Source: Rhizaria sp. SCN 62-66
Lineage: Eukaryota
Direction: 5' to 3'
DNA: 64,000 nucleotides
Assembly (NCBI GenBank): GCA_001724265.1
Contig: MEDY01000189.1
Location: 1 to 64,000, forward strand
In this document: positions 31,877 through 57,898 of the stretch, one piece after another
Position numbering within the stretch: the stretch's first letter is position 1
Layout of the letters: the number at the start of each line of letters is the position of its first letter
Notes under the pieces: model-generated
Database searches by the model: none
Told to the model about the DNA's origin: nothing
The model's input: the letters and a program-made list of their open reading frames with translations, nothing else
Program-made: the position numbers and the translations under genes

Positions 31877-33268
31877 ATGAGTAACCGCAATTCGAAGAAG
31901 AACAAGGGCTCTTCGGCCCGCGCTGTCCAGCAGCAGCAACAGCAACAGCCGCATCAGTTGCTGCCCGACAACGATGACTCCGCGGCCTCCGTGTCCGCGT
32001 CCGTCACGGCCTCGGCCGCTTTCCTCCCCACCCAGGCCCCCGGCGCCGCATCCACAATCCCTCTATCTTCCTCTTCTTCTTCTTCCTCGTCCTCGTCGTA
32101 TGCGCTTGCCGACGCAGCCGACCTCTCGTTCGCCCACTCGCCCGCGGGCGTCGCGCCCCGCAGCCTCCTCTCCGCCTCCGCCTCGACCTCGGCTGCCGGT
32201 GCTAGTGCTGGCGCTGGTGCTGGGCCCTCGACGGCGCCCTCCGCGGCGACAGGCTACCCAGGGCTGTACGCCGCCGCCGCTGCCGCCGACAACGCCGCAG
32301 CAGGGTCGGGCACTGCGACCGCGGAGACGCTCTACCTCGCGCGCCACGCCGCCGGCGCCCAGGGCCACGGCGGCGGCGGCGTGGTGCTGGTGCCCGGCTC
32401 CGCGCTGCCAACTATCACCGCCGCGGGCAGCGCGGCGCCGCTCTATGGCGCCCCCGGCTTCAACGGCGACAGCTTCGGCGGTCACAGCACCCGCCACGGC
32501 AACAGCGGCCTGTACCTGCAGAGCGGCGTCAGCGACTTCGGCGGCGCCGTCTCGCCCTACAACAACGCGGCGCTATTCACGCTCAACGCCAACGCGAGCA
32601 GCGACATTAGCAGCGGCGGCAACAACAACAACAGCAGCGGCAACACCAACTCTAGCAATACCGGCGGCGCGCGGCCCTCGGTGGTCGGCGCCCGCGCCCG
32701 CGCCGGCGTGGCGGGCCACAGCGACAGTCGCAGCGCGACGGCGCACTACGGCGGCGCGGCCTCCTACGGCGGCGGCGACGGCATGACCATGACCGTCACC
32801 CTCAACAGTAACAGCGCCAACGACGGGGAGCTGGGCGGGGACTTCGTGGTGGCGCGGGACGCGATCCTGACGGCGGCGCAGGACGATGCCCAGCGCTTGC
32901 TGCTGCAGCGCGTCAAGGGCCTCTGCGCCGCGCACCTCGTCGCGCTGGCGCTGCTGGTCTACTCGAAACTGTGGCCCGTGTCCCTCTTCTCGTACCTGGG
33001 CTTCCTCTGCGCGGGCGCGTACTGGCAACAGTTCCACCTGCAGCGCGCCAAGGCCGTCGCCATCCTGGGCGCCGTGCTGCTGCTGTCCTGGCTCGGCGTC
33101 GTCACCGCGTGCATCTACTTCCTCGCGTACCCAGTCACGGCGCTGGCCTGGTACGACACCATCGCGCTGTGCGCCGTCGTCGTTGACGCCGTCGTCGTCG
33201 TCCCCGTCGCGCTCTACAACGCATTCTGGCTCCATCGCTCGTACAGCTTCATGCTCATGGCCTTCTGA
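31877..33268 (+). CDS. Unknown membrane protein: disordered N-terminus plus about 4 C-terminal TM helices
   Basis: Single GC-rich ORF from ATG 31877 to TGA, with hydrophobic helices in the last ~115 aa. Confidence 0.8.
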   Translation: MSNRNSKKNKGSSARAVQQQQQQQPHQLLPDNDDSAASVSASVTASAAFLPTQAPGAASTIPLSSSSSSSSSSSYALADAADLSFAHSPAGVAPRSLLSASASTSAAGASAGAGAGPSTAPSAATGYPGLYAAAAAADNAAAGSGTATAETLYLARHAAGAQGHGGGGVVLVPGSALPTITAAGSAAPLYGAPGFNGDSFGGHSTRHGNSGLYLQSGVSDFGGAVSPYNNAALFTLNANASSDISSGGNNNNSSGNTNSSNTGGARPSVVGARARAGVAGHSDSRSATAHYGGAASYGGGDGMTMTVTLNSNSANDGELGGDFVVARDAILTAAQDDAQRLLLQRVKGLCAAHLVALALLVYSKLWPVSLFSYLGFLCAGAYWQQFHLQRAKAVAILGAVLLLSWLGVVTACIYFLAYPVTALAWYDTIALCAVVVDAVVVVPVALYNAFWLHRSYSFMLMAF

Positions 33269-34206
33269 GACTGAAACAACGTTCAGGTCACGCCGTTGTC
33301 TACAAAAAGCTGTGATAGAGTAGAGTGCATTATTTTGTTTGTTCTATCCCGACTTTGGATGCGTTTTTGTATTGTCTGTATCTGTTGGGTGACAGCTTGT
33401 GAGGCCATCGCGCGGTCTGCGTGCGTCGCTTTGTTTTTGTCCGTGACCGGTGACGAAACATGATAGATTTCCAAGGATTATTTCCGTTGTCTTGCATCAA
33501 TCAATACGTGGTCGTCAATTTGTGAGTTTTCTCAGTCTGCGAGATGATTATTTTGTTGTCTTGATTGGATTTTTCAATCACGCTGTTTTATTTTTTATCT
33601 TCAGATGAGCAGAAGACTTCAGTAGTTACTGCCTTTGGCCTCTTAATGTGTCGTCTGTCTGTCTGCTTATTTCTCCTCCGACTTCTCGCAAGTTCCTATT
33701 CTCGTTTTTTGTGGGCCACACAACTTCTGCATCGTGCATTTGTCCAAACGTGCTCTATTTGCTCTTTTTGTTTTCACTCCGTTGTCCTGTTGTATTGTTT
33801 AATTTTTAAAATCCCGTGATTCGGTTACCACACTTTTTTTTCTATCACTGATGTGCGTGATGCGATAAGCTTATGCATCCATATACACACTTGTATTTCA
33901 TCTCCCACCAACAAAGTTGATTACATGTACGTACGTAAATAGGATTGTTGAAATGAAGCTTTGTTGGAATTGTTATTAAACTCGCATATCCGTATGTATT
34001 TATCGTGAGCTCGCACTCGGCCGTGTGGTCTCTGAGCGAGCAGCACGCAGCGTTGGCACACAGAAAGCGCAAATGTTACGAGGGAGCGAGCAATTAAATA
34101 ATAACTACTATTATTATGAGTAAGATGTGAATATAAACAAAGATTGAGTCAAACAGACTGACGAGAGCACTCAGCCTCGGCGTCAGCGTCAGCGTCCGCC
34201 TCGGCC

Positions 34207-37792: not shown

Positions 37793-40111
37793 ATGGCCGC
37801 CGCGGCCGCGCCGTCCCCCGGCCCGCGCGAGGCTGCCGGGCTCTCGCTCTCGCTCTCACTCTCGCCTTCGCTCTCGCTCCCGGGGCTCTGGGACTGCGCA
37901 GTGCTACTCCTCGCGCTCGTGGGCCTAGCGCACTGCCTCGCGCTCCTTGCCACGCATTTCGCCGCGACGGCGCCCAATGTGGCGGCGGCGAACGTGGGCG
38001 CGCACGGCGGCAACGCCAGCTCCGGCGCCAAAGGTGTGGCCACATCCACCAGTCCGGAGCTGCAGCAACTTACTCTCGACACCACCGAGTGCTCCTGCTC
38101 CAAGTCCAGCGGCGCTGCCGCTGCGCGCACGCTCTCTGCCCCTGCGACAACCACTGCTACCCAGGCCGATGTCGCTACCGACGCCACTAACACTGCGCCT
38201 GCGGCTGCAGCTACGAGTGTGGCTACTGAGCCTGCCTCGTGTCCCGAGCTCAACTGCCCGGCGGGCTCGCGCTGCGTGTCCGGTCCTGTGCTGCGGCCCT
38301 CGCGCTTTGTCTTCCCCGCGCCCAACTCGGACCCCTCGTGGCCGGCCTGCCCGCGCTCCCGGACCCTCGCCGTGCTCCACGAAACGCTCCAGCTCCTCCC
38401 CGGCGGCGTCGGCCTCGCGCCCGCGCTCGCCGCCGCGCTCGCCACGCCCCTCTCGCCGCCCGCGGCCTCGGGCTCGGCCTCGGGCTCTGCAGTGGGCTCT
38501 GCAGTGGGGACACCTCGGGCCTCGCCAAGGGCCTCGCCAGGGGCCTCGCCCCAGGCGTCGCCGCGCGCGTCGCCCCGGGCGTCGCTCTCCGCGGCGTCGC
38601 TCTCCCGGGCCCTGCAGCAGCAGCGCCAGCAGCAGCAGCAGGGCTGGGAGGGGTGGGCGCAGGCGCAGGGGCTGCTCACGCCCATCGACGCCTTCGCCAA
38701 CGCCAACACTGTCAACGCCAACGTGAACACGCCTGCAAGCATGGGCAGTGGGCACGCCGGAGCGGGAGCGGGCGCGGGGGCGGGGGCGGGGGCTCCTGTT
38801 GTGGGCCTGAGCGCGATCACTGACGCGGTCGACCGCAGCAGCAGCAGCGGCGGTGGCGCTCTCAGTGTGCTGCAGCTGCAACTCCCGCAGCAGCTGCCGA
38901 ACACGTGCCCTGCCTCCGCCTCGGCGTTCTCCCACGCTGCCGCCGCCGCGGGCTCGGGCCCCACGTCAGCGCTGGGCAGCCCGGCCGTGGTGGTGGCGCC
39001 GGGCGTGCGGCGGCGCGTGCCCACCGTCCACATGCTCTGCGGCATGATCTGCAGCGGCAAGTCCTCAGTCGCTAAGGTACGAACGGGGCCAACCGTGAGA
39101 AACAATGAAATGATCAATGTGTACTCCGTTACATCTGTTAGTCTGTTGTTTATTTCTTGAATTGCTTGTCCTATGATAATATTCTATCTAAATCCGTGTT
39201 TATATCGTCTAACACAATCCTAAGTAACATCTTCACATCTTTGCTGACTTGCGTCCGCCACAGCGGCTGTCCCTGCGGCACAACGCGGTGATCTACTCGC
39301 CCGACACGTGGCTGCTGTACCTGTTCGGGCCCGAGTTCCCGATCTCCTCCTTTGGGCTGGTCGGCGACCAGGTCAAGGAGCTCATCTGGCGCGCGGCGCA
39401 GGAGAGCATGGCCCGCTACGGCGTCGACGTCGTCCTCGACTTCTCGCTCTGGACGCGCGCCGACCGCGACGCCTGGCGCGCGCGCATCCGGCGCGACGCA
39501 CGGAACTGGCACCGCGCGCCCGGCGCCGGCTGCGCGGGGACGGCCAGCCCCGGCGCCGGCGCCGGCGCTGGCGCGGGCGGCGACAACGACGAGGAAAACG
39601 TCAAGATCGGTACGTCAGCCAAACAAGACCATCGCATGAGTGTATCACCAATTTGTCGATTTGCAACGGAAGTGTATTTGTTGTCGTTGACCTCATCTTG
39701 GCCTATCTTGTCCTCTTTCATCTTTGTCCGCGCGCAGTGCTGCACTTCGCCGAGTGCCCCCTGGACGAGGCGCGCAGCCGCCTGGTGCGCCGCAACGCCG
39801 CCGTGGCCGCCACCAAGGCGCGCCTCCTCGCCGAGGCTGAGGCCGAGACCAAGGCCAAGGCCGCTGCGGCCGCCGCCGCCGCGAGCAAGGGCGACGCCGA
39901 CGCTGACGCCGATACCGATACTGCTGAGTCAGCAGAGTCGGCGCGGTCGTTCCAGGGCGACGACCTGAACCTCGAGGTGCCGCTGTCCTCGTTCGACGAG
40001 TGGCGTGGGCTGCTGGAGCCGCCCGGGGAGGACGAGCGGCCCGTCGTGCACCACTGCGGCAGCGGCGCGCAGCAGCACAAGCAGCAGCAAGAGCCGGCCA
40101 AGGCGCCGTGA
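37793..40111 (+). CDS. Membrane-anchored protein with C-terminal P-loop (AAA_33 / nucleotide kinase-like) domain, 3 exons
   Basis: Exons 37793-39076, 39264-39609 and 39738-40111; stop is TGA. Motifs VHMLCGMICSGKSS (Walker A), YSPDTW, GVDVVLDFSLWTRADRD, ECPLDEARSRLVRRN, LEPPGEDE. Hydrophobic segment near the N-terminus. Confidence 0.82.
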
Positions 40112-40648
40112 ACGGGCTGAGGGGCTGCAGTCCACCGAGGGGAGTGACCGGGGACTTGTTGGGTCGGTGCCAAATTGGGCCAAGATAGGATTGTTTTGAA
40201 CAATGTCATCTTACTTTAGCTTTATAACAATAAATCTTCGATAATATTTTTATCTATTGTTTGATTTCTCTTCTGTTTTCATGTGATTCTTCAATGCTTG
40301 TGTATTTAAAACGACTTCTCGCGCGCAACTACTGTCGTGTATGTTACTCTGTGTATGTCGTTGTTGTTTTATGACAGGTCTCTCTTCAGACGACACTGTC
40401 ACAGCAAACAACAACAGCAACATCGGAAGCAATAACAGAAACAGACATATATACGTTTTGGATATGACATCGACAGAATACAAGTTGTTTCGAACGACAC
40501 AAATACTACACTGAACATGAAACATAAACAGCACAAAGATTCCAAGATATCAAAAAAGCAAAATACCGAGTATTTCAAAACAATATTGTCAAACAAATAC
40601 AAATAAATTCAACCCTATATTGCACGCCCACATTTCCCTCTTCGCCCG

Positions 40649-43081
40649 TTACATCTCGGTGACGCTGACGTCGTCGAGCTCGGAGTCGTCGACGCCCTCG
40701 ACGGTGAACTGCGGCGGCGCCGACACGTCGATCTCGTCGCCAGCGTGCGCGTCCACGGTCGCCAACACGCGCCCGCCGCCTGCGGTCGGCACCGCGGCCG
40801 CGCCCGCGGCGGCGGCGGCGGCGCCGCCCGCGGAGGCCGGGGCGGCGGCGGCGGCGGCGCGCGCGCGGCGGGCGGCGGCGGAGGCGTCGCCTGCGATGTT
40901 GTCGAGCTCCACGTCGTCCGCGTCGTCGTCGTCGCCCGAGGCGAGGATGACGCCGCCGTCGGTGACCTGGCTGTACTCGTAGCGGCGCGCCGTCTTGGAG
41001 GGCCGCCAGAGCACGGCGATGGTTACGACGACGACGAAGTAGAGGATCTGCGAGAAGCCCGAGGTGGCGAGCCACTGCTGCTCCCAGCGTTCCCCGGGCG
41101 TGAGCGAGGCCGTGAGGTTGTAGAGCATGAAGACGACCTGCGCGGCGACGGCACATGACAAAACCAGCGCGAAGCGGCCCATGAGCCAGAGCTTCGCGGC
41201 CTGCTTGTGGGCGCGAAGGTACGCGATGGTGTCGTAGAGGCTGACCATCGTCCACCACGCGAAGAGACAGTCTAGGCAGTAGAGCGCGACGTCGAGTGCG
41301 AGCAGCGGCGCGGCGGCGGCCGAGGGGTCGAGCCGCGTGACCAGCTCGCGCGCGACCGAGAGCGCAAAGTAGGGCGCGCTCGTCAGCGCGAGCTTGCGGC
41401 GCGCGGCGCCGAGCGTGGGGCGCACGACGCCGAAGCCGACGGAGACTGCGACGACGAGCACGCGCGAGCCCGTCTGGTGCGCGCACTTGATGATGGCGCA
41501 CAGCACCAACAGAGGGGTGGCCGGCGCGCCCGCGGCGTTGTAGCGGTAATGGTCGGCGAAGCAGAGCAGCGCCTCGGCGACGCACGAGACAAGGATGACC
41601 GTGATGAAGCGCTGCAGCGTGATCTGGTCCTTGTTGTACACGGCCGTCAGCGCCAGCCAGACGAGGCAGACGAGAAGGTATGCCGCGGCGAGCGCGCCGT
41701 AGAAGGGCAGGAAGGGGAATAGGTGGCCCGGGAGGTAGCCGTAGGGGTTCATCCACTCGACCGTCCCGCTCACCGTGAAAGTCGCCACCTAGGCGCTGGG
41801 TGGCGCGGGCGCGGCCGACGAGTCGTCACCAGCGGCGTCTTCCTCGGCGGCGTCAGGATCGGCGTCGGCGGCGGCGGCAGCCACAGCGGCGGCGGCAGTG
41901 CTGAAGGAGCCGGTGGAGAGCGCTGAGAGGCGGCGCACCGCGGAGCTCTTTGAGTTCTTGCTCTTGCTCTTGCTCTTATCCTTGGCACCCGAGCCAGAGC
42001 CAGAGCTCGAGCTAGAGCCAGAGACTGAGCCCGAGATAGCCGGCGCGGTGAGCGAGTACTCGGTGTCGTCACACTGGGCGATCACGACGGAGTACTGGTC
42101 CGTGGCGTTGATCGCCAGCCGCACGCCGGGCCCGCGGTAGTCGTAGTCGCTACCGTCGCCGTCCAGGTCGCTCGCGCCGGCGTCCGCCCCAGCGCCGGAG
42201 CCGGCAGTGCCGGTGCTGGCGCTGTCGCTGGAAGGATGGAACAAAGGAGAAATAACCAGATATAAAGATGATAGTGAGAAATCAACCAACTAATACAACA
42301 CTCACTTCTCTCAAAAACCAAACAAATACAGCTGTAAATCTGATAAACACGAGATAGATCCTCAATGAGGCGTGTGGACGCACCTGCCGGGAAGCGCGGG
42401 GCCCTGCGGGGCCAGCACGGCCTTGACCGAGGCCGAGCTCTGCCCCGCCGGGATCGTCACCGTCATGCGGTGCCACGGCCGCAGCGCAGCCGAGCCCGTG
42501 CGCGGCGCGAACACCACCGGCGCGCCGCTGCTGCTGGTCTGGCCCTTGGCTCCGGCGTTGCCGCCAGTCTGCTGCTGCTGCCGCAGCTTCTCCTCTTCGT
42601 CGGCGCGCGTGTAGACGCGGCCGTCGCGGCACCAGAGGTACTCGTCGGCGGTGGCCTCGTCGCGGCCGAAGTACGTGTCTGCGGGCGCAGTGCCCTGCAA
42701 CACGAAGACATCTAGCACCGACTCCTTGTGGAAGCGCGGGTCCGAGTGCGCCGCGCCGGGCCGCAGCAGCACGCGCGCAGGCGGCACCGACAGCGCGCGC
42801 GTCACCGTCAGGTCCACCGTCACGAACGCGCGCCCGTTGCCCGGCTCCAACGCCGCGGGCGCGTCCTGCGGCGCGTAGACGCGGGCGAGCGATAGCGAAG
42901 TCAGCGTGCGCGGCGCCAACGCCTGCGGACGCACGGGGAACACCTCGGCGCGCGCCAGGGGCGCCAGCGCGGCCGCCAGGACCAGCAGCAGCGCCGCGAG
43001 CGCGAGGCGAGGCACGCGCAAGAGGCCGGGCGCGCGCGGGGATGCGGCAGCGGCGGCGGCAGAGGCGGCGGTGCAGAGCAT
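40649..43081 (-). CDS. TMEM87/GOST (lung seven-TM receptor family) protein, 2 exons, with one in-frame TAG
   Basis: Exons 43081-42384 and 42227-40649; stop is TAA. Signal peptide, YSVVIAQCD, SGTVEWMNPYGYLPG, VSVGFGVVRPTL, EQQW, LWRPSKTARRYEYS. TAG at 41789-41791 lies in frame between the luminal and 7TM parts. Confidence 0.9.
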
Positions 43082-43567: not shown

Positions 43568-45937
43568 TTACCTCCTGCGCGGCGCGGTGTCGAGCGCGGC
43601 CTGGAGCCCCGCGCGCTCATGTTCGCTCCGGAGCAGCGCTGCCTGAGCAGCGCTGAGCTGCTGCTGCAGCGAGGCCACGCGGCCCTCTGCAAGCCGCGCC
43701 TCGGCCAGCTGCGCCTCCGCGCGCTGCACCTCAGCCCGCAGCCGCGCAGCCTCGTCCTAGCCGCCCGCGGCTGCGGCTATCGTCGTCGCGGCCACGGCCA
43801 CAGACGCGGAGGCGGCGGCAGCGGCGGCCGCCTTGTCGTCCTCGAGGGCCTTGACGCGCGCGCGCAGTAGCGCCAACTCCTGCGACGCGGCGCGCAGGTC
43901 CCGCTCGGCGCGCGCGCCCGCCTCGGCCATGCTGTCCGCGCGCGCGCGCCAGTCTGCGGCCTCGCGCTCCGCCCGCAGACGCGCGGCCTCGACCGCCTCG
44001 ACCGTCTCCACGGAGGCCGAAGGGGGCTGTGCGGCGGACGGCTGCTGCGGTGCAGCGGAGGAGGAAGAGGAGGAGGAGAAAGAGGTGAGCTCTACCTCGA
44101 GCGCGCGGACCCGGGCGCGGGCGGCGTCAGCCTCGGCCTCGGCAGCGGCCTTGGCGGCACGCAACCTAGTGTGCAGAGTCAGACAGATAAACAAGAGTTA
44201 GCGGAGTAACGAAAGAGTCAAAGAGGCAGGAAAGTGAGGAGTAGAACAATTCAAGATACAAGATATGAGAGAGCTTCAATTTAATAATCATACATATACA
44301 CATTTAAAAAAAAAAAGAACGACAATTTCTTAATATGCAAAAACGGTGAACTATACTCCACGAAAGCTGAAGAGCGTAAGAATAGCGTACCTGGCCTCTG
44401 TGTCCTGCGCCTGCGACACGGCCGCGACGGCCGAGTCGAGCGAGCCCTGGCTCTGCGCAATCTGCCCCAGGAAGCCCTCGCGCTGCGCCAGGAGCGCCTG
44501 CGCCTGCGCGTTGAGGTCGGCCACCTGCGCCGAGAGATGCGCCGTGACGAGCCGGTGGTGCTCCTCGCGGTCGATGGCCGTCGCCAGCTCGGTCCGCGCC
44601 GCCAGGGCGCCGCGGCCGATGGCGCGCAGCTGCTCGTCCAGCGCCGCCTTCTCCTCCCACAGCGTCTCCAGCTGCGCCCGCAGCGCCGCCACCTGCGCGC
44701 GCAGCGCCGGCGCCGACGCCGAGTCCTCTTCCTCGTCGTACGGATCCTTCTTGCCATCGCTCTGGGGCTTGGTCTCAGACTGCTGCTGTTTGCTGTCCTG
44801 CGCGGGGTTAGCTTCGGGGGCAGCCGTCGCCGTCGCCGCCGCGTTGCCGCCGCTGTTGGCGTTGGCGTTGGCGAGCGCGGCCTTGAGTGCGGCGACCTGT
44901 TTGCGCAGCGTCGCGACCTCGCCCGCGTGCACCTCGGCGGCGCCGCGCCACTCGCCCGCCTCGGCCTGCGCCGCCGCCGCGTCCCGGCCCGCCGCCAGCG
45001 CCCGCGCGCGCGCCCGCGCCAGCTCACCGCGCGCGTCGTCGCGCTCCAGCTCGGTGCGCCGCTGCAGGTTCGCCATGCGCCGCACGTCGTCGCCGCGCGC
45101 GCCGGCCTCGGCGGTTGCCGCCGCCAGCGCTGTCTGGGCCGCGGTGAGCGCGGCGGCGGCGGCGGCCTGCGCGGCGCGCGCGTCGGCCAGCTGCGCGCGC
45201 TCGGGCAGTGCGTCAAGCGCCTCGCGCAGCGCGCGCGCCTCGTCCGAGCGCGTCTGCAGCGCGGCCTGGGCCTGCGCCAGCCGGCTCGCTGCGTCGGCGC
45301 GGGCGGCCACCACGGTCACCAGCTGCGCCCGGACAAGCCCCGTGCGCGCGTCCGCCGCCTGCGTCTCGGCGCGCGCGTCCGCCAGCTGCTTCGCCAGCGC
45401 GGCGATCTGCGCCGCCAGCTGCTCTGAGCTCGCGCGCGAGAGTCCCGCCTCGCGGTCGCGCTGCTCTAGCGCGGCCGCCTGCGCGCGCGAGGCGGCGAGC
45501 AGGGCCTGGAGGCGCTGCAGCTGGTCCGCCTGCTGCGCGCAAAAGCCCGCCACGGCCGCGTAGTTGCGCTTCAGCGTCAGCACGTACTCCAGGTCCATCT
45601 GCAGCGTCGCCAGGGAGGAAATGTCGCCCGCAGAAGGGGCGGGCGCAGGTGCAGATGATGAGCCCGCTGCCGCAGAGGCTGATGCTGTGGCCGCTGATGA
45701 TAACGATGTCGAGGTTGCAAAGGCTGACTGTGACGTCTGCGGTCCTTGGGTTGCGCCCGATGAGGCCGCAGACGCGAAGAAGAGCGAAGGACCCATCTGT
45801 GGCTGCGGCTGTTGCTGACCAGAGGAACTAGGACTGGGGAGAGCTGAAAAGTCGCCGAAGTCATTGGCTGTAGCTGAAGCCGTGTTGTCAGTGCGGCGAC
45901 GGCCCGCAAGAATGGGGTTTGCCGTCGACGTCGACAT
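43568..45937 (-). CDS. Long coiled-coil protein of unknown function, 2 exons, with one in-frame TAG
   Basis: Exons 45937-44391 and 44165-43568. Heptad-rich A/E/Q/R/L sequence continues for 62 codons beyond TAG 43757-43759 to TAA 43568-43570. That end could instead be a GTAAAA donor. Confidence 0.8.
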
Positions 45938-48615: not shown

Positions 48616-49152
48616 GCAATAAGTCTTGGCTCGACTCTGTCTTTGTTGTTTGGTGTTGAGTAGTTTTTCTCGTGTGTTGGTGGATAACCTGTCGCGCAGG
48701 TTTACAAAGAACAATTACAACAACTCTCATTTTCTCTTTCGTCCACAGCAATATGAATGAATGTGTGTCGCGCCCGTGTGGGTCTCCGTGAGCCGTGAGT
48801 TGGTCGGAGGGAGCTCCGGACTGACACTGGATGAAATCAATACACATCTTTACTTAAAACAGATATCTACGAGTATTGTTAACAGATTGGTGGTTATTAT
48901 GACGATAACGAATGTGTATTCCTCTAGATAATGGGTGCCAGTGCTATGTCTTTCAGTGCAACTTAAAAGCGTAACAAGCGAATCTGCAATCATATTCACT
49001 GTGAATCAGCTTGTTCAAGTACTGTTAATACATGTTCTCGTTGATAACGTTTAAATAGTTCTCATATCGCGAAATTCTATCATTTTGAAATTCACATCTG
49101 ATTTGTCCCTCGGCAAAAGTTTGTTATCCTTCCTCATATGAAATGCGTGCAC

Positions 49153-52100
49153 TCAGAAGTGGTTATCCCTGATGTCCACCTCGATCTCCTGTCCTAGGCT
49201 GAACACCGTCCCCCCGGTTCCGGCTCCCGCGCCGCCGCTGCGACCTAGGCTCACACCGCTGCCAGTAGCCGTCGAAGAAGAAGAGGAGCCACCGCTGACG
49301 CTGGCGCTACCGTCGAGCGCGAGCGCGAGCGCTGCCGCGGTCGAGGGCGGCGCGGCGGGCGCAAGCGTGGGCGTGCACAGGTGCGCCAGCGCCAGCTCGC
49401 CCGCAAGCTCCGCCGCCAGCAGCGCGAACGACGGCGCGCTCGACAGCCGCGGCAGCCGCGGCGCGCGCGCGTCCGCAGACTCGCCGTCGCTCGCTGTCTC
49501 TCTCGCTATCGGGCCTGAGCCGGGGCTTGCGGGGCTGTGCTGCGACGGGAACTCGGGCGCCTGCGCCTGCCATGCCACCGGCGCGGGCTTGGACCAGAAG
49601 GACGCGAACAGCGAGAGCGGCCCCGACGACTTCGGCCGCGCCGTCTTGTGCGACTGCGACTGCGAGCTGCTGTTGGAGCTGCTGTTAGAGCCATTGCTGT
49701 TGCTGCTGCCGTTGTTGCTGTGCTTCGGCGCCATGAACGCGGCGAGCGCGGCCTCGAGCGCGGCGACGTGCGCTGCCGCAGCGTCGCGCGCGCAGCGCAG
49801 CTCCGCGCCCCGCAGCGGCGGCGGCAGCGCGGGCGGCGCCAGGCACGCGCCGCCCAGCGCCAGCGCCTCGCCGCGCGACAGCCGCGCCAGCGCGCGGGCC
49901 AGCGCCGCCGCCGCCTCCGCCTCCGCAGCAGCCTCCGCGGCAGCCTCGGCAGCAGCCTCCGCGGCGGTCTCGGCGTCAGCCTCGGCGTTCGCAGTGCAGC
50001 CACCCGCAGTCGCGCTGCAGCGGGGCGCCGCGTCCGCGGCGCACTGCTCCTGGAGCGCGCGCGCGGTCTCGGTGGCGGCGGCGAGCAGCCCCAGCACGTC
50101 GGCGACGCGGAGCCCTTCGAGCGCGGCCCGCAGGCGCGCGGCGCCGGCGTCCGGCGCGGACCGCGCGAGCGCGAGCACGGCGCGCGCGGCGACTGCGGCT
50201 ACGCCGCGCCGGGCGCCCGCGCGCTCGCGCTGCAGCCACCCCTCGGCCAGCGGCGCCGCCAGCGCCAGCGCGTACAGGTGACCCAGCGCGGCGCGGCGCT
50301 TGGCCGCGGACGCGCCCGCGATGGGCACCACAGCCAGTACGGCGTCCCACTCGCTCCCGCCCGTCGCCGGCGCAGACGCGGCCGCATGTTCACGCGCGGT
50401 GCCCGCGGACGTCACGGAGCCTGCGGCGGCACCCGCAGAGGGCGGGTGGCCGGCAGCGAGCGCGGCAACGGGGTCTGTCCCCGCAGCGGCGGCGCGCGCG
50501 AAGGCGGCGCGAGCGAAGAGCGGCGGCGCGGGCGCGTGCAGATAGGGGTTGAAGCTGGGGTGCGCGGCCACGGCGGCGAGCGCGCGCGGGGCCGCCGCGA
50601 AGGGCCGCAGAGGCGCCAGCAGCGCAAGCGTGAGGCGGGCCGTGTAGGCGCGCGCCACGGCACTGCCGGCGCGGCACGCGCGCGGACACAGGTAAGGCGT
50701 CTGCAGCGTCAGCAGCCTCAGCCACGGCGCCGCGTCCTCCTCGGCGCGCGCGAGGCACCGCGCGCAGCGGGGCTGCGGCTGTGGCAGGAGCAGGGGGCGG
50801 AGGAGCGCGGCGGCGACGTCGGTGTGGGCGCCAACGGCGGGGCAGTCGCCGTGCGCGGCCGCCGCAGCCGCGCTGCCGCATCCGCCGCCGGCGGTCGCGC
50901 CCGCACCGACGCCGAACACGGCGCGAGGGCTGCCGGCTCCATTGCTGCTGCTGTAGCCGGTGGGCGCCGGCGCGGCGGGAAACGGGTAGGCGTACGTGTT
51001 CGAGTCCAGGTCCGCGCAGGCGCCGCAGCGTGCGAGCGACAGAAAGCCCGGGCCGGCCAGCCCCGCCGCAGGCAGCAGCGCCGCAGCAGCGTCACCGCCG
51101 CCGCCTGGCGAGGCGAGGAGGCGCACGGCCGAGGCGCCGGCGGCGTCAACCGCGGCCTGCACAAGCCGCCGCGAGCGCAGCGCCTTGGCCGCGAACGACG
51201 ACAGAGAGGGCTCGCCCGCGCTCGCGGCCGCGGCGGCGGCGGCCGAGGAGGACCGCAGCAGCGCCCGGGCCGGGACGGAGGCCGACACGGCGGCCGCCGG
51301 CGCAGACGACACCTGCTGGTGCTGCTGCTGTGCGCCATGCTGGGCACTGTGTTGCTGCTGCAACGACGTGCGCGGAAGCAGCAGCGGGAGCGAGCCGCCG
51401 CCAACGGCGCCGCCCGCGCGCAGCAGCGCCGGCGGGGCCGCCACGGCCGCGCCCAGCACTGCCCGCGCCGGCGCGCGCGGCCTCAGCGCCGCCACGGCCG
51501 CCGCCGACAGCAGCGTGCCAGTGCCGGGGCCGGGGCCGTTGGCCGCGGGGCCGGCACAGTCGCAGTCGCGGGCAACCCTGTACTCGGCGTCAGCATCGTC
51601 GTCGTCGCCGTCGTCGTCGTCGTCGAGACCGCTCCCCCGGCCGCTGGCGGCACCGCCCTGCTCGCGCCCCTCAGCGCCCGCGCGCACTGGTGCAACAGCC
51701 CCGTCGGCGGCCCGCGGCGCGGGCGGCGCGGGCGGTGCGGGCGGCGTGGGCGTGACCGCGAGCAGCTGCTGCACGCGGCACGCGGCAGCCAGCGGCACCA
51801 GCGCGGGCGCCAGCGGCGCGTCGTGCGGTGCCACGTGCTCCGGCCGCGGCGCGGGCATCAGCGCCCGCTGCGCCCGCAGCGCGCCCTGCGCGGCCACAAA
51901 CATGCCGGAGCCATAGACAGGGCCGGAGCCAGTGTGGCTGAGGCCGCGGCTGTGCGCGGCGAGGCCCCAGGAGCGGAGCGCGCGGCGCGAGAGCGGGAGC
52001 GTGGCCGCGGCGGCCTCGACCGCAGTCCCGCCCAGCGCCAGCACCAGCGGCGCGGCCGCGAGACGCCGCAGCAGGTACAGGTCCACGACGCCCACCACGA

Positions 52101-55100
52101 GCGCGCGCGGCGTGTGCAGCGACACGCGCGCGCCCGCCGCAGACGCAGACGCGCGCGCGAACGCGGCTGCGGCTGTCGCGGCAGCGGCCAACGCTGCGGG
52201 CAAGGTGGAGGACGAGGCGGCCGTCGCGGCGGCGACGGCGGCGGCGGCGCTGGCTGCCGTGGCCGCCGCCGCAGTGGCCGCCGCCGCAGTGGTCGCGGCC
52301 ACGTCCGCGGCCGTGAGCGCGGCGATGATGGGCTCTAGTAGTGGGTTGCCGACCGAGAGCAGCGGCACCACGCCGCCCGCCAGCGCCGGGCCCGCCAGCG
52401 CCGCACCGCGCGGCTGGGCGGGCGCGACCACGGGCAGCGGCGTAAGCGCGGCGTGCGCGGAGAGCGGCGCGGCGAGCGCGGCGACGGCCAGCACGGCGCG
52501 CGACACGGCGGGCGCCGAGGGGCCCGCGACAAGCACCGGCACGCCCGCCAACACGGCCGCCCACAGAGTCGGCAGCAGCGGCGCGAGCCGCGGGCCCAGC
52601 ACGGCCAGCGCGTCCACGGCCGCGTGCGGCGCGTTGAGGCCCGCCAGCGCCGCGGGCGAAGCCGAGACGGCGTACGGTAGCGCAGCTGGCGCGCCCGCAG
52701 CAGGCGCAGGCACGGGAGTCAGCGTCTGTGCGGTCGTCGTCGGGGGGCAGAGCAGCGGCCGGTATGCGGGGCCGGCCCAGACGCGGCCCCAGTCGCACAG
52801 GCCGCGGGGGGCCCCGCAGCCGCCGCTCCCGCTGCTGTCGCAGCTGGTCGAGTCGAGCAGGGCCGAGAGGGCGCGCCACGGGCGCTGGCGCGGGCGCAGG
52901 GCGCCGAGACCGTGGCTCGCGCCCGCAGCCTCCGCGAGCACCGGAGACACCGCAGCCAGCATCCCGACTGCGCCGGAACCAGCATCCGCATCAGCACCAG
53001 CATCAGCATCAGCATCAGCATCAGCGTCAGCGTCAGCGTTCGTGTCAGCGTCAGCGTTCGTGTCAGCGTCAGCGTCAGCGTCAGCGTCAGCGTCAGCGTC
53101 AGCGTCAGCGTCAGCGTCAGCGTCAGCGTCAGCGTCAGTGCGGGTACGGGCGCAGGTGCGGGCGCTCTCGAAAGCGGCGGCCCGCTGCAGCGCGGCGTCG
53201 AGCGGCGAACGCGGAGCCGCCAGCAGCAGTGCCGCCACGGCCGCCGCGCCCACCGCCAGCCCCGCCGCGGGGTCGCAGCTCGCTGTGTGCGCTGTGTGTG
53301 CTGTGTGGTGGAGCACCGAGGCCATGAGGCGCCGCGCGCACTGCAGCATGGGCCCCAGCCCCGCGGCCCCGCCCAGCGCCACCCGCTGGCCCTGCGCGCC
53401 CGCCCCCATCGCTTGCGACGATGTGTCGTCTGCGGGCGCGAGGGCCTGCGCGGCAAGCAGCGGCAGCAGCCCCGCGCGCGCGGGCGGGGCCCAGAGCGCC
53501 GCGGTGGCCGCCCACGCCGCGCACAGCACCGCCGCGGGGCCCGCCAGCGCCGCAGACAGCTGTACCCCGGCCACCGTCAGTTCGCCGGCCGCCGTCAGCT
53601 CACCGACCGCCGTCAGTTCGCCGACAGGCTCTGATGCTGTCGCAAGTGCAGTCGCTACGGTTGAGGCATCACTCTCGGGCGATGTGGCTCTGTGCTGCTG
53701 CTGCTGCTGCTGCTGCTGCAGCTTACGGTGTCGCCGCCGCAGCTGTCGCAGCGCGCGCGCGCGGAGCCTGTCGGCCGCGCGCTCGGTGGCGGCGTGCGCG
53801 TCGGCCCGGCTCAGCGCGCGCGCCTCGGCCGCGAACGAGTCCACCACACACGGCGACTGCGCATACGACTGCGGCTACAACTGTGCGTCTGACTGTGACC
53901 GTGGTGCGCAGGGCAAGAGCCCCCAGAGCGCGGTGGCGGCGTCGGCGGCGAGCGCGAGTCCCAGGGCGTGGAGCGGCAGCGGCAGCAGCGCGAACACGGC
54001 CTGCTGCGCGAACCCGCGCGGGCTACTCTCGTCGCGCACGCGCGCGAACCGCGCGTACCCGTACAGCACGCGCACGCCAGCGCTGGCAGCGTCAGAGGCG
54101 CCTGCGTGGGCGGGGGCGTGGGTGTCGCTCTGGAGCAGGGCTGCGGCGGCGGCGCGGGGCGCTCCCAGGGACGGCAGCTGCGGGTGCGGCCGCCACCCCC
54201 AGTCCGCAGCAGCGTCGGTGTCAGCGGCAGCAGCGGCAGCAGCGGCAGCAGCGGCAGCAGCGGCAGCAGCGTGAGCAGCGTGAGCAGCGTGAGCAGCGTG
54301 AGCAGCGTGAGCAGCGTGAGCAGCGTGAGCAGCAGCGGAGCCGGTCTGCGCGAGTGCTGGAGCGACCGTAGCGGCGTCGGCGAGCGCGCGCGGGGCGACG
54401 CAGCTGGCGCCCCAGAGCCCGCGCGCGACGGCGCGCTCGGGGCACTCGTTGCTGTGGCTGCTGTGGTGGCCGTTGTGGCCGCCGCCGCTGATGCTGCTGC
54501 TACTGCCGTTGCTGTTGTTGCTCCTGGCGCTGGCGCCGCCGTTGTCGCCGCCGTCGTCGCCGCTGTCGCCGCCGCTGTCGCCGCTGTCGCTGCTGCTGCA
54601 GTCGCCGAGCCCCTCGCCCGCCCAGCCCCAGGGCCGCGCGGAGTGCCTCGTCGCACGGGCCGCCCGCGCCGCGCGCGTGGCAAGGGCGGCGCGAGACTGG
54701 GGTGACTGGGACTGGGACTGGGACTGGGACTGGGGCTGGGGCTACTGAGGCTGGGATGATTGAGGCTGGGACGATTGAGGCTGAGGATGAGACTGTTTGT
54801 CCCGCTTGCGCTCCAGCAGCGCCCGCAGCCCGCGCGCGGCCGCGCACCGCGACAGGCCCGCATCGCAGTCTGCGTCACCGACAACGCTCGCACGGGCGCT
54901 GCCCCCATTGCCGTGACCGTTGCTCCTGCTTGCAGTAGCAGTGGCCGCAGGAGCAGCAGCAGTGAGCGGCAGCGGGGGGCGCGCGAGCGCGACCTGCACG
55001 GTGAAGCAGTGCGTGGTGTCGGTCTCGGCGGGCGAGAAGGTGGCCGAGTCGGGGAAGGCGAGCGCGCAGGCGGAGGCCACGGCGGCGGCCGAGAGCCCGT

Positions 55101-55290
55101 GGACCGGCGGCGGCGGCCACAGCGCGTACGGCCGCGGGCCGTGGTAGAGGTCGAACGTACACGCGCCCAGCAGCGTCACCCAGGGTGAAAATGCCGCCGG
55201 CGGCGCGGCGTGCCGCAGCGGCACCGCGGCGCGCGCGGGCGCGCGGGCGGGCCCGACGGAGGCGGGCGCGGGCGAGGGGGCCGAGGGCAT
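49153..55290 (-). CDS. DENND6: DENND6/FAM116-like Rab GEF, single frame of about 2045 aa with two in-frame TAG
   Basis: ORFs 54742-55290, 53875-54075 and 49153-53847 share one frame. The only interruptions are TAG at 54742-54744 and 53875-53877; stop is TGA. Motifs in order: CTFDLYHGP, LAFPDS, LYGYARFARVRDESSPRGFAQQAV, LWAAVLAGVPVLVAGPS..AVLAVAALAAPL, VVGVVD, FNPY, LYALALAAPLAEGWL. Confidence 0.88.
52995..53138. repeat. (GCGTCA)n hexamer repeat encoding Asp-Ala repeats in DENND6
   Basis: Tandem TCAGCG/TCAGCA units, directly visible. Confidence 0.9.
54223..54336. repeat. 9-nt tandem repeats encoding poly-Ala and (His-Ala-Ala)n in DENND6
   Basis: AGCGGCAGC units followed by AGCAGCGTG units, directly visible. 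Confidence 0.88.
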
Positions 55291-56080
55291 CGGGCGGGGC
55301 GGCCGGCGAAGGCGGCAGCGCGGGACTGCTGCGCGGAGGGGACGCGATCTCGTGGGCTGCGGGCAGTTGAGTTAGGAATGTGTTCTAGTCAGCACTAAGG
55401 GCAGATGAAAAACTGGGAGACATAGGGGAAGCAACGAGCTGGTGAGATAGATTTGAAAAAGGCAGGGTGAACTTGAAACCATAGTACTATTAAGACTGAC
55501 TACGAGTTGATTTCGAGGTTTGAGACGATATAATACAAGTATGTGAATACACTGTCATAAAACATCACATTATTAGTAGTAAATCATGCAACGGTAATAT
55601 ATAGTATGAATAGGCTGGTTGCTCCCGTTTGCCACAGGGACGCGAGACTGTGGGGGAACCTGCTCGTAACGCCATAAAATAAGGTTCTGCTTGGTCGAAC
55701 TCGATATTACCATCGTCAAATGCCACACAATCAAAGTATGGTGAACAACCTACTTGTTTTTACTTGTTCCGTTAATTATACTTTTCGAATTTGTTATGAT
55801 GTTCCTATAGCCGATGAGACAAGGAAAGTCGCGTCCCACACCAACTCACGTCACCACCTCCGCAAGTCAGCCTCCCAGCCTCTTGAGAGTTGAATCCAAA
55901 GCCCAGTTTGTTTCTTTAATGTGGCTACTACTTAATCCATCATGTTTGTTTCACGCTATCTGTATTCCGCTGCATTTTCTGTCTCCAAGCACCGCTCACC
56001 CCTTCTCTTCAAAAATTTATCCTTCATGCCGTCGACACAAACGCGTGTGCTTGTATGTTCACTGCCAGGGCATTCCCGCG

Positions 56081-57898
56081 ATGAATCCATTCCCATTGGT
56101 GGTATTCATCCTGGTGATCGTTGGAGTCATCATCACTGTCAACTTCAATGTCTCCTTCCCCATCCCTTGCTGGCCCTTTCCCAACAACGACAGCAACGCT
56201 ACCAACGGCAACGCCGCCGTCAATAACAACGACAACACGATCAACGCCGCCGTCGCGGCCAACGCCGCCGCAGACCCCGAGGCGGCCGCGGCTACCGCCG
56301 CCGCGGCGCCGGTGCGGCGCGTGCGCGTGAGCTACACGGCGGTGCCCATCGCGGGCGTGCTGCTGCTGCTGCTGGGCGGCGCCATCGGCGGCGACGACGT
56401 GTGGGCCGGGCTCGCGGGCGACAACGACATCCAGCCCTACACGATCATGATTCTCTTTATGGCGCTTGCGTACGTGTGCATCTCGCTCGACTTCACGGGC
56501 GCGCTGGCTTTCGTCTCGCTCAAGGTCGTCGCCGCCGCGGGCAGCTCCAAGCGCCGCCTCTTCGTCGCCTTCTTCTGCCTCACGGGCGCGCTCACGGCCT
56601 TCACGTCCAACGACGTCGTTATCCTCACGCTGACGCCCGTTGTGGTTTACTGCGCGCACTTCGCGCAGACCGACGCGGAGCCCTACATCTTCACGATGTT
56701 CTACGCCGCCAACCTCTTCTCCTTCTTCTTCATCATCTCCAACCCGACCAACATCATCGTCGGCGAGGCCGTCGGACTCTCATTCGCCGACTTCATCTCC
56801 TACATGCTGTTGCCCGGCTTTGTCACCGTGCTCGCCACGCTCGTCGCGCTGTACCTCTACTTCCGCTCCTCCCTCGACGGCGCGCTCGCGATGCCCGCGC
56901 TGGACCCCGCCAAGGAGCTGCAGTCGCGCCGCGGCGCGCTCGTCCACGCCGCCACGCTCGGCGTCTGCATCCTCTTCATGTGCGTGTCCTCGCTCGTGCC
57001 CGGCGTGCGTCTGTGGATGGTTGCGCTGGGCGCCGGCATCGTCTCGCTCGTCTACAACCTCTTCGCGCTGCCCTGGCGCCTCCCCGCGGGCGCGCCCGGC
57101 AGCGGCCGCGGCGGCGCGCGCGGCGGCCACCGCGCCGGTGCGGGCGACGCGCACGCGCAGCACGGGTACGTCGAGTTCGGGGACGAGCAGCTCCAGCAGC
57201 CCGGGCACGGGGGCGCGCTTGGCGTCATCGACCTCGGCGGCAACAGTAACAGCAACATCAACAACAGCGGCTTGCACTCGGTTGTGATCGGCGACGCGAG
57301 CGTTAGCGTGACTATTAGAGGCGCCGACGGCGGCAGCGGTGGCAGCGAGGTTGTCGTGGCGGGCATCGAGCCGAAGCCGCAGGCGCACATGCCGATCGTC
57401 AAGGCGCTGCCGTGGGCACTGATGCCCTTCGTGTTCGGCATGTTCTGCCTCGTGCAGGCGCTGCTCGTGCACGGCTGGATTGACGAGTTTGCACGCTGGT
57501 GCATTGGTGCCATGGGCGGCGTTGACGCCCTACGCGACTCGGACGGCGGGGCGGCGCCGTTGGTCACTTCCTTGTTCATGATGTTTGTCACAATTGTGCT
57601 GTGCAACGCGGCCAACAACCAGCCCGCAACGATTTTGCTTACGCGCATCCTCATTTCGCCGCGCATGAAGGCGATGGGCCCGTTAGCGCACCGTGCCGCT
57701 GTGTTGTCCGTCATTGCTGGCTCAAATATTAGTGCGTGCTTCACCACGATCGGCGCACTTGCTGGGATCATGTTCTGCGGCGTACTCGCCATCCACAAGA
57801 TCGAGATGTCCTACGGTCGCTTCATCAAGGTCGGCGTTATCTCGCTCCCCATTGCGCTCGCCTGCGCGCTCGCGATCACTGCCGTCGTCGCGATTTGA
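56081..57898 (+). CDS. ArsB/NhaD-superfamily permease (arsenite/metalloid efflux-type)
   Basis: Likely start MNPFPLVV at 56081; stop is TGA. About 12 TM segments. Motifs AYVCISLDFTG, LTAFTSNDVVILTLTP, ISNPTNII, CNAANNQPATIL, GSNISACFTTIGALAG. Confidence 0.85.
   Translation: MNPFPLVVFILVIVGVIITVNFNVSFPIPCWPFPNNDSNATNGNAAVNNNDNTINAAVAANAAADPEAAAATAAAAPVRRVRVSYTAVPIAGVLLLLLGGAIGGDDVWAGLAGDNDIQPYTIMILFMALAYVCISLDFTGALAFVSLKVVAAAGSSKRRLFVAFFCLTGALTAFTSNDVVILTLTPVVVYCAHFAQTDAEPYIFTMFYAANLFSFFFIISNPTNIIVGEAVGLSFADFISYMLLPGFVTVLATLVALYLYFRSSLDGALAMPALDPAKELQSRRGALVHAATLGVCILFMCVSSLVPGVRLWMVALGAGIVSLVYNLFALPWRLPAGAPGSGRGGARGGHRAGAGDAHAQHGYVEFGDEQLQQPGHGGALGVIDLGGNSNSNINNSGLHSVVIGDASVSVTIRGADGGSGGSEVVVAGIEPKPQAHMPIVKALPWALMPFVFGMFCLVQALLVHGWIDEFARWCIGAMGGVDALRDSDGGAAPLVTSLFMMFVTIVLCNAANNQPATILLTRILISPRMKAMGPLAHRAAVLSVIAGSNISACFTTIGALAGIMFCGVLAIHKIEMSYGRFIKVGVISLPIALACALAITAVVAI

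Follow-up and report, generated by a model that had tools for sequence, protein, structure and literature searches.

The window, by which we mean the whole stretch of 64,000 nucleotides of Rhizaria sp. SCN 62-66 that was analysed, contains a minus-strand frame of 2072 codons (55371 to 49153) whose internal stops are two TAG codons, at 54744-54742 and 53877-53875, and no others. Numbered from the ATG at 55290 and with both TAGs read, the product has 2045 residues, including very long inserts rich in Ala, Ser, Gln or Asp-Ala. The features of this gene are listed below.

49153-55290, minus strand: DENND6/Afi1-family gene, a single exon from ATG 55290-55288 to TGA 49155-49153, placed by GC3 and homology
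54952-55191, minus strand: uDENN part 1 (WVTLLGACTFDL...LAFPDS...), residues 34-113 matching residues 21-96 of the homologue P0009 (BLASTP, E 1e-4), upstream of TAG1
54742-54744, minus strand: TAG1, in-frame at residue 183, preceded by ...SSQPQSSQPQ and followed by PQPQSQSQSQSQ...
54704-54783, minus strand: tandem repeats around TAG1 (TRF), with period 6 at 54704-54740 (CAGYCC) and period 15 at 54728-54783 (about CAGCCTCARTCNTCC)
53923-54114, minus strand: uDENN part 2 (LYGYARFARVRDESSPRGFAQQAV...), residues 393-456 matching P0009 191-255 (E 5e-7), between TAG1 and TAG2
53875-53877, minus strand: TAG2, in-frame at residue 472, preceded by ...SQSDAQL and followed by PQSYAQSP..., 15 residues past the end of the uDENN part 2 match
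52309-52620, minus strand: core DENN/SPA-like region (LWAAVLAGVPVLVAGPSAPAVSRAVLAVAALAAPL...), residues 891-994 matching P0009 323-437 (E 3e-7), downstream of TAG2

By sequence comparison, the gene at 49153-55290 is a member of the DENND6/Afi1 family, the identity that the sequence-only reading had given it. A phmmer search of a library of 1.84 billion proteins matched it to P0009, a single DENND6-type protein of 849 aa from Choanoeca flexa (E 2.3e-8), with uDENN part 2 as the best stretch. Among the best 150 of 328 matches (E 0.001), P0009 is the sole real homologue and two are the window's own fragments; the other 147 were set aside, their best stretch, where given, being the Asp-Ala repeat at about 650-880 of the query. 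P0009 carries Pfam SPA at residues 331-430 (26.9 bits, cutoff 22), and the clusters closest to it bear the name DENND6. The window protein, searched whole and as five pieces, gave no DENN-type Pfam match and only DUF4763 at E 0.091, and in a homologue search with 53272-54189, aimed at longer proteins, none of 8,000 scored candidates reached E 0.01, low-complexity words having crowded the search. Because there is no direct Pfam match, and SPA and the DENND6-named clusters are reached via P0009, membership in the family runs through this one bridging protein. The likeness to the DENND6/Afi1 (SPA-domain) branch lies in ordered matches over the two-part uDENN, the core DENN/SPA region and, weakly (E 0.11), the C-terminal part, and P0009 also has an insert between its two uDENN parts, as the window protein does. 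The difference lies in length: P0009 has 849 residues and the proteins of the DENND6-named clusters about 550-670, whereas the window protein reaches 2045 because it contains huge low-complexity inserts. That DENN motifs are kept in-frame beyond the TAG, as had also been claimed, is confirmed by the BLASTP matches, which are collinear in one frame before TAG1, between TAG1 and TAG2, and after TAG2, and by GC3 of 0.83-0.87 in that frame in all three pieces split by the TAGs, with flanks at a total GC of 0.39-0.40. TAG2 was absent from the sequence-only reading.

Two neighbouring genes on the same strand each contain one in-frame TAG, and the residues around these two codons read PPSA before and VATF after the one, AAGG before and DEAA after the other.

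43568-44165, minus strand: last exon of a coiled-coil gene, whose upstream exon ends at 44391; intron 44390-44166 (225 nt); TAA 43570-43568
43757-43759, minus strand: coiled-coil TAG, in-frame, followed by 62 coding-like codons and then TAA 43570-43568
40649-43081, minus strand: GOST/GPR107-like gene, with exon 1 at 43081-42384, intron 42383-42228 (156 nt), exon 2 at 42227-40652 and TAA 40651-40649
41789-41791, minus strand: GOST TAG, in-frame in exon 2, 24 residues before the 7TM domain

The GOST gene matches Pfam GOST_TM at E 1.6e-45, and its orthologue P0276, one protein of 590 aa covering both the luminal and the 7TM parts, matches exon 1 (8e-26) and, in exon 2, the stretches on either side of the TAG (2e-5 upstream of it, 1e-150 downstream). 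P0276, like P0153 and P0154, comes from relatives at 64-80% identity. The layout of GOST/GPR107-108 proteins, a signal peptide, a luminal domain and a 7TM domain, is found in the window gene, and its luminal and 7TM parts form one chain only if TAG 41791 is read. In the coiled-coil gene GC3 still stands at 0.82 beyond the TAG, and total GC drops to 0.38 only past the TAA. The coiled-coil TAG site is Glu-rich.

These four TAGs, all in minus-strand genes between 41.7 and 54.8 kb, are the only in-frame stops among 12,096 exon codons in 21 exon segments, which contain no TAA and no TGA. They fall in 3 of 18 gene models (two in DENND6, one in GOST, one in the coiled-coil gene), at a rate of about 0.33 per 1000 codons. 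The models were assembled manually, with GC3 phase, ORFs, Pfam and three orthologues as guides. Since a working standard-code gene has no internal stop, four such stops in three of 18 models are beyond chance. That all four are TAG is in itself weak evidence, because about 65% of the single-base paths from sense to stop, given the codon counts, lead to TAG, and random nonsense mutation would give four of four with a probability of about 0.18. The 18 gene ends consist of 10 TAA and 8 TGA with no TAG; orthologue C-termini confirm two of them (PSS and GOST), and one, at 12465, is uncertain. Over the 40 codons past these ends GC is 0.31-0.63, as against 0.66-0.79 past the four in-frame TAGs, where GC3 is 0.82-0.95 and no further stop occurs. 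These values come from GC by codon position, which replaced a codon-usage six-frame discriminator that was too weak in low-complexity sequence and passed only TAG 43759. Introns were examined in four cases; all are rich in A and T, measure about 150-240 nt and have GTACGC or GTGCGT (GTRCGY) at the 5' end. TAGs at 44353, 35316 and 34960 fall within AT-rich introns, whereas the four exon TAGs do not. ARAGORN and Rfam each found 0 tRNA genes in the 64-kb window, and two scans of genome contigs, one with the GOST alignment and one with that of PSS, returned no match.

The same TAGs recur in several assemblies (2015-2017 runs; JGI and ENA contigs). A metagenome scan with the neighbouring transporter returned the locus L001 and four loci at 32-35% identity, which were not used; L001 is 100% identical to the window over 53864-57363 (3,500 bases), both DENND6 TAGs included, and possibly stems from the same sample. 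A gene-caller product of 182 aa (P0002), present on three contigs from two sources (JGI, ENA), ends exactly at TAG1, and a gene-caller fragment of 66 aa (P0003) ends at TAG2. DNA contigs of two data sets, X2 and X3, whose tables are almost identical and which may be one data set, span 53731-54209, TAG2 included, with 0 differences. Among the read and contig pieces listed, none spans TAG1, and a DNA contig begins at 54750. Contigs of a polyA RNA library, X4, cover 50999-51263, 51803-52215, 52497-52971 and 53192-53639 with 0 or 1 differences; being contigs, they neither establish transcription nor rule out an infrequent spliced form. Another X4 contig spans 53814-54057, TAG2 included, with 14 differences and 4 gaps, of which the listed ones fall at 53958 or beyond and none at TAG2; we rejected it as evidence for conservation of TAG2 in a diverged relative. 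The depth of X4 is zero in the intergenic stretch 55321-55922 while the DNA runs continue, which hints weakly at best that X4 derives from genuine RNA. The read mapping also contains hundreds of joints and loose ends from other GC-rich metagenome organisms, which were disregarded.

Taken together, the sequences indicate that Rhizaria sp. SCN 62-66 very probably uses TAG as a rare sense codon. We put at roughly 75% the probability that UAG is translated as an amino acid while UAA and UGA end translation, an arrangement that fits NCBI table 15 (TAG = Gln). If UAG is translated in this organism, then TAG1 is an ordinary but rare codon within an intact DENND6-family gene, and the same explanation very probably covers TAG 53877-53875 in DENND6, TAG 41791 in GOST and TAG 43759 in the coiled-coil gene. 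Such a code would involve a tRNA with anticodon CUA that reads UAG and a release factor eRF1 that no longer acts efficiently on this codon. The amino acid is more likely than not glutamine, presumably delivered by a derivative of tRNA-Gln(CUG), in which case TAG would have arisen from CAG by a C-to-T change.

Which amino acid is inserted is a separate matter. The sequence-only reading had placed TAG1 in a Gln/Pro/Ser repeat, and the minus strand at 54760-54700 does read ...TCC CAG CCT CAG TAG CCC CAG CCC CAG TCC CAG TCC CAG..., its translation, ...KRDKQSHPQPQSSQPQSSQPQ before the stop and PQPQSQSQSQSQSPQS... after it, being equal to the quoted string. The further claim that TAG sits where CAG fits the repeat depends on the register: read in hexamers, the repeat runs from TAGCCC into CAGCCC and then into five CAGTCN units, in agreement with CAG, and the period-15 register found by TRF at 54728-54783, which spans TAG1, puts it on TCG/TCA (Ser). 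At TAG2 a 12-base repeat (TRF, 53856-53883) pairs the codon with TAT (Tyr). All four TAGs lie in variable, lineage-specific, low-complexity inserts at which homologues fail to align, and therefore no conserved column reveals the residue. Local composition favours Gln moderately: the Gln enrichment summed over the four sites is reached by 52% of random true-Gln sets of four, and the same test gives 0.08 for Leu, 0.10 for Glu, 0.15 for Lys, 0.06 for Ser and 0.04 for Tyr, all non-Gln residues falling at 2-15%. Given that TAG is read at all, glutamine is thus the probable amino acid, if not by a wide measure of confidence. It is less probable, though by no means remote, that TAG is a sense codon for Leu, Glu, Tyr, Ser or another residue, an alternative that rivals only the amino-acid part of the explanation. 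In the rhizarian exLh UAG alone has been reassigned to Leu (PMC5304391), PMC11687900 describes the same change for three uncultivated phyllopharyngean ciliates, and the nearest named relative of the window PSS in our tree is a rhizarian, Lapot gusevi, with a weak support of 85. The Ser and Tyr registers point the same way, as do the Glu-rich coiled-coil site and the Glu that P0276 has opposite TAG 41791 by ungapped offset; against these, the repeat alignments at TAG1 and TAG2 are short and imperfect (81-82% matches in TRF), the Glu offset lies in an unalignable linker, two of the four TAG sites are within Gln-rich tracts, and no rival residue approaches the composition value of Gln. The proposal that TAG points to Gln thus divides into two parts. 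Its sense-codon part is upheld by exonic TAGs with in-frame homology or coding signal continuing past them, by four TAGs in three genes and by 18 gene ends of which none is TAG; glutamine itself is less firmly placed, with the TAGs in unalignable inserts, repeat registers that disagree and a composition that favours it only moderately.

The other explanations retain the standard code. Leaky termination at UAG, by near-cognate readthrough with no dedicated tRNA, or internal starts, would yield truncated together with full-length products, and could account for a TAG that is very rare (4 of 12,096 codons) and confined to unconstrained inserts. C directly after a stop codon is a weak termination context, and both TAG1 (TAG CCC CAG) and TAG2 (TAG CCG CAG) precede C, but the other two TAGs precede G. 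Likewise the GOST 7TM domain could start at a Met 13 codons past the TAG, where gene callers began the fragment P0275, but neither a GOST protein devoid of its luminal domain and signal peptide nor a three-piece DENND6 would match the single-chain homologues. Leakiness would also leave the absence of TAG from all 18 gene ends unexplained unless selection already avoids TAG, which is the first step of reassignment; we consider this alternative unlikely. Less likely again is that the three genes are pseudogenes or nonsense alleles. At a GC3 close to 0.9, a stop reached by one base change is usually TAG (the 65% noted above), CAG to TAG is a simple transition, and all the sites lie in fast-evolving inserts, but nonsense changes would need to have struck three of the 18 neighbouring genes, the exon codons contain neither frameshifts nor any TAA or TGA, the downstream coding signature and homology are intact, no window gene ends at TAG, and the same TAGs appear in several assemblies from the 2015-2017 runs and in both JGI and ENA contigs. 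The least probable explanation, to which we attach very little weight, is a small intron over the TAG that is spliced from the mRNA. GT and AG dinucleotides are plentiful in the CAGTCC repeat, a GTGCGC at 54847 precedes TAG1 by about 100 nt, and among the RNA pieces listed none spans TAG1. The four introns examined, however, are AT-rich and 156-240 nt long, and the TAG surroundings have a GC of 0.66-0.79; from 54847 to the AG of TAG or of later CAGs the lengths would be 106, 112, 118 nt and so on, and because these are never multiples of three, splicing from 54847 would shift uDENN part 2 out of frame. By our own estimate from base composition, roughly 3 GTRCGY motifs would be expected in the 1.7 kb that holds six; none occurs in 44170-43560, and the sole one near the GOST TAG is downstream and so irrelevant. 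The sequence-only reading had named an intron over 54742-54744 as one outcome that would overturn it; from intron features and GC we judge TAG1 to be exonic, with no intron covering it.

A UAG that is translated while UAA and UGA terminate has counterparts in other nuclear codes. UAG is read as Gln, with UAA (and UGA) as stops, in the fornicate Iotanema spirale, as described in PMC5304391, and in the ciliates Hartmannula sinica and Trochilia petrani, as described in PMC11687900, a code equivalent to NCBI table 15. The window organism resembles these in that, very probably, only UAG is sense and in that UAA is a frequent terminator (10 of 18 ends here), and it resembles Iotanema further in the scarcity of UAG, as reported in the PMC5304391 text. 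It differs in being neither ciliate nor fornicate as far as seen, in having long contigs and GC-rich exons with few AT-rich introns of 150-240 nt, in a PSS that groups with environmental sequences outside animals and fungi, and in that Gln, assigned there, is only favoured here. With the UAG-Leu systems, exLh (a rhizarian of the Sainouroidea; PMC5304391) and the phyllopharyngean ciliates (PMC11687900), it shares, according to these sources, UAA as the main stop and, very probably, a change of UAG only; like them, it is an uncultured organism found from sequence alone. The possible rhizarian affinity of the window PSS, weakly supported in the tree, is a further likeness to exLh. In exLh, however, 384 in-frame UAGs are reported in 71 genes, often at conserved Leu (PMC5304391), as against four in about 18 genes and none at conserved positions in the window, and the local context here gives Gln 0.52 and Leu 0.08. 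Giant-virus bins form a third comparison: some are best called with single-stop reassignments, the text of PMC13524828 giving no known hosts for them, and the window differs in being cellular, with spliceosomal introns and the housekeeping genes PSS, GOST and DENND6. According to the same text, isolated giant viruses all have standard-code hosts, and hosts with such codes are therefore being sought (PMC13524828).

The organism is an uncultured eukaryote found in bioreactor and wastewater metagenomes. A trypanosomatid origin was rejected because spliceosomal introns occur, and a ciliate origin is improbable from the length of the contigs, their GC content and the size of the introns. At slightly better than even odds, we consider it a previously unrecognised, non-ciliate protist of wastewater reactors that has acquired a UAG-only code independently, is at an early, low-usage stage of the change (about 0.3 TAG per 1000 codons) and is a candidate for the type of host that giant viruses with such codes would need. 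Standard gene callers fragment its genes, and public protein collections include the resulting pieces P0002, P0003 and P0275. Few nuclear code changes occur outside ciliates, and those that split UAG from UAA are rarer, the examples in PMC5304391 and PMC11687900 being exLh, Iotanema and some phyllopharyngean ciliates. If the reading of UAG as a sense codon is true, the window would represent reassignment at a stage that is early or makes little use of the codon, in a GC-rich genome with introns and with rare TAGs placed in inserts, and would bear on how such changes begin. A cellular organism with a single-stop code would also be a candidate for the missing partner type of the host-less giant-virus bins described in PMC13524828.

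The TAG triplet does not act as a terminator within the window, and we consider it probable, at roughly three chances in four, that this organism reads UAG as a sense codon. The sequence-only reading had placed an in-frame TAG (TAG1, 54744-54742) inside a minus-strand repeat, and both the sequence and its translation match the string given there: the strand runs ...CAG CCT CAA TCG TCC CAG CCT CAA TCA TCC CAG CCT CAG TAG CCC CAG CCC CAG TCC CAG..., which translates as ...QSSQPQSSQPQ, the stop, and then PQPQSQSQSQSQ... in the minus-strand frame from 55371 to 49153. This frame comprises 2072 codons, and its only internal stops are TAG1 and a second TAG at 53877-53875 (TAG2). The limits of the gene, by frame reading, are as follows.

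55290, minus strand, first ATG of the DENND6 gene
49155-49153, minus strand, TGA terminator of the DENND6 gene

Stop-free frames of 300-900 codons also overlie the gene on both strands (53811-55175 in another minus-strand frame, and several plus-strand frames within 49142-54371). Since these frames arise from the GC content of the gene, an open frame by itself is no coding evidence in this window.

Pfam gave no match on the DENND6-gene protein, whether searched whole or as five pieces. Residues 1-1173, translated with Q at TAG, were searched by phmmer against a set of 1.84 billion representatives, and 328 proteins scored E 0.001 or lower. Among the 150 listed, 147 matched the Asp-Ala repeat only, two were gene-caller fragments of the gene itself (P0002, 182 aa, stopping at TAG1, and P0003, 66 aa, stopping at TAG2), and one was a real relative, P0009, which is 849 aa long and comes from the choanoflagellate Choanoeca flexa (E 2.3e-8 over three stretches). 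The repeat is a 159-base, period-6 array at 52980-53138 on the minus strand, encoding (Asp-Ala)n interspersed with a little Asn and Thr; such low-complexity inserts thus mask the gene in ordinary searches. P0009 bears the Pfam SPA domain (26.9 bits; cutoff 22), and the language-model clusters closest to it carry the names DENND6 or DENND6A, with a family set common to 14 of 30 hits at scores of 0.95. BLASTP against P0009 gave four matches, collinear and all in one frame.

Window residues 34-113, P0009 21-96, E 1e-4, before TAG1 (residue 183)
Window residues 393-456, P0009 191-255, E 5e-7, between TAG1 and TAG2
Window residues 891-994, P0009 323-437, E 3e-7, after TAG2 (residue 472)
Window residues 1672-1733, P0009 741-802, E 0.11, far downstream

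These ordered matches support assignment of the gene to the DENND6/Afi1 family through a single bridging protein, in agreement with its earlier identification as DENND6. They also bear out the proposals that downstream DENN motifs stay in the same frame and that a stop here would truncate uDENN, as termination at either TAG would sever that domain from the remainder.

An intron covering 54742-54744, which would have removed TAG1 from the message, was sought in the genomic sequence. Third-position GC (GC3) in the same frame is 0.84, 0.83 and 0.87 in the three pieces into which the two TAGs divide the gene, against a flank GC of 0.39-0.40, and the 40 codons past each TAG keep this character (GC 0.79 and GC3 0.90 past TAG1; GC 0.79 and GC3 0.95 past TAG2), with no AT-rich stretch near either one. 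The motif GTRCGY occurs six times in 1.7 kb of the gene. If an intron ran from the nearest of these (54847) to the AG of TAG1 itself or to a later one, its length would be 106, 112, 118... nt, never a multiple of three, and it would therefore throw the second uDENN match out of frame. As far as the sequence can tell, TAG1 and TAG2 lie in exon.

Two further minus-strand genes carry an in-frame TAG.

43081-42384, minus strand, exon 1 of a GOST/GPR107-like gene, encoding signal peptide and luminal domain
42383-42228, minus strand, 156-nt intron between GOST exons 1 and 2
42227-40652, minus strand, GOST exon 2, then TAA, by frame reading
41791-41789, minus strand, in-frame TAG 24 residues ahead of the GOST_TM domain (E 1.6e-45)
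44165-43571, minus strand, last exon of a coiled-coil gene, after a 225-nt intron, with an in-frame TAG at 43759-43757

The GOST orthologue P0276, one unbroken 590-aa protein, aligns to exon 1 (8e-26) and to exon 2 both before (2e-5) and after (1e-150) the TAG. The coiled-coil gene continues for 62 further coiled-coil codons to a TAA, and GC drops to 0.38 only past that TAA. The 21 exon segments (12,096 codons) contain four in-frame stops, all TAG. The 18 gene ends in the 64-kb window, modelled by hand using GC phase, ORFs, orthologues and Pfam matches, comprise 10 TAA, 8 TGA and no TAG. GC over the next 40 codons is 0.31-0.63 past each gene end versus 0.66-0.79 past the four TAGs, where no further stop occurs. 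TAGs at 44353, 35316, 34960 and 22495 were dropped as gene ends, being sited in or beside introns. Three of the eight TGA ends are followed one to three codons later by a second in-frame TGA (TGA ACA TGA, TGA GAC TGA and TGA ACG GGC TGA, at 2640-2650, 33266-33274 and 40109-40120), possibly as a back-up stop.

Random nonsense mutation would account for four TAGs with p near 0.18, as about 65% of single-base sense-to-stop routes yield TAG by the codon counts, so the all-TAG pattern by itself is weak evidence. Moreover, all four TAGs fall in low-complexity inserts of minus-strand genes within 13 kb of one another, and no tRNA gene was found in the window. The case for translation of TAG consequently leans on four points jointly: four internal stops in three of 18 otherwise intact genes, no frameshifts or other stops, homology that carries on downstream of each TAG, and no gene ending at TAG. 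Taken together, these favor the earlier proposal that TAG is translated. Both DENND6-gene TAGs recur in a 3,500-base contig of another assembly (L001), 100% identical over 53864-57363, and P0002 was called on three contigs from two sources. Contigs from two DNA runs (X2 and X3), which look like one data set, span 53731-54209 with zero differences; the next begins only at 54750 and narrowly misses TAG1. The polyA RNA library X4 gave contigs, which are no proof of transcription, that match the gene in several places with 0 or 1 differences. The X4 contig at 53814-54057 spans TAG2 with no difference listed there; it is identical to about 53957 and then shows 14 letter differences and 4 gaps to 54057. 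It may derive from another allele, another strain or a paralogue, or result from a mis-join within low-complexity sequence.

The proposal that TAG means Gln is plausible and, if TAG is read, we lean modestly toward it; at none of the four sites does a homologue align. Read in the hexamer register, the array opens with TAG1 (TAGCCC) and continues with CAGCCC, which agrees with a CAG-to-TAG change. Other registers do not point to Gln: the period-15 repeat sets TAG1 on TCG/TCA, and the period-12 repeat over TAG2 pairs it with TAT. By a crude local-composition test, random sets of four true Gln codons matched or exceeded the Gln enrichment around the sites in 52% of cases; sets of other residues did so in 15% (Lys), 10% (Glu), 8% (Leu) and 2-8% (all others), a contrast that is overstated because calibration used all positions and not low-complexity ones alone. 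The UAG-only changes described in PMC5304391 and PMC11687900 include some in which UAG became Gln (Iotanema spirale, Hartmannula sinica, Trochilia petrani) and others in which it became Leu (rhizarian exLh, three uncultivated ciliates).

The window alternates GC-rich blocks (GC3 0.8-0.95 in one phase) with stretches of 35-50% GC. Its spliceosomal introns are AT-rich within very GC-rich genes. They share GTRCGY as an extended, unusual 5′ splice site, and pyrimidine-rich sequence precedes the YAG; the four that were delimited are about 156-240 nt and start GTACGC or GTGCGT.

42383-42228, minus strand, intron
44390-44166, minus strand, intron
35346-approx 35168, minus strand, intron
34981-approx 34785, minus strand, intron

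A phosphatidylserine synthase (PSS) gene contains two of these, and its three-exon model and C-terminus are confirmed by full-length relatives (P0153, 80% identical; P0154, 75%). A quick tree built for PSS, covering 47 rows with SH-aLRT as the only support measure, groups the three with support 100. They nest in a 23-row set of environmental sequences and two entries without species label, which is separate from both the animal clade and the clade of fungi plus nucleariids; among named rows, the rhizarian Lapot gusevi lies closest (support 85). The same DNA is present in metagenomes from bioreactors, wastewater and activated sludge, and we treat the organism as a protist, not an opisthokont. 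Elsewhere, a two-exon PhoPQ-activated pathogenicity-related gene (PF10142) occupies 24722-26594 on the minus strand, with profile positions 3-266 matching 25572-26594, positions 265-367 matching 24727-25414, and a TAA end at 24724-24722. Beyond it, 26600-31600 is gene-poor, with about 5 kb lacking a GC3-periodic coding block and no convincing ORF even with TAG as sense. Within it, the plus strand is strongly enriched in A (0.31-0.38) and poor in T (0.09-0.15) over more than 2 kb (27700-30100), with an AT skew of 0.465 for 28001-30000.

Mechanistically, as in the UAG-only cases already published, a tRNA with anticodon CUA would read UAG and not UAA, a point made in PMC5304391, while eRF1 would spare UAG; the tRNA would most simply be a derivative of tRNA-Gln(CUG). 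UAA stays the preferred stop in the UAG-reassigned lineages described in PMC11687900, and the window is likewise TAA-rich (10 of 18 ends) despite GC3 near 0.9. The kind of code change is already known, and the organism appears new to it; the publications listed in a literature search included no UAG-only case in a GC-rich, non-ciliate wastewater protist. PMC13524828 describes giant-virus bins for which single-stop reassignments give the best reading, and states that isolates so far all have standard-code hosts. A cellular organism with a UAG-only code would be the sort of host that those findings call for, a link that we regard as putative.
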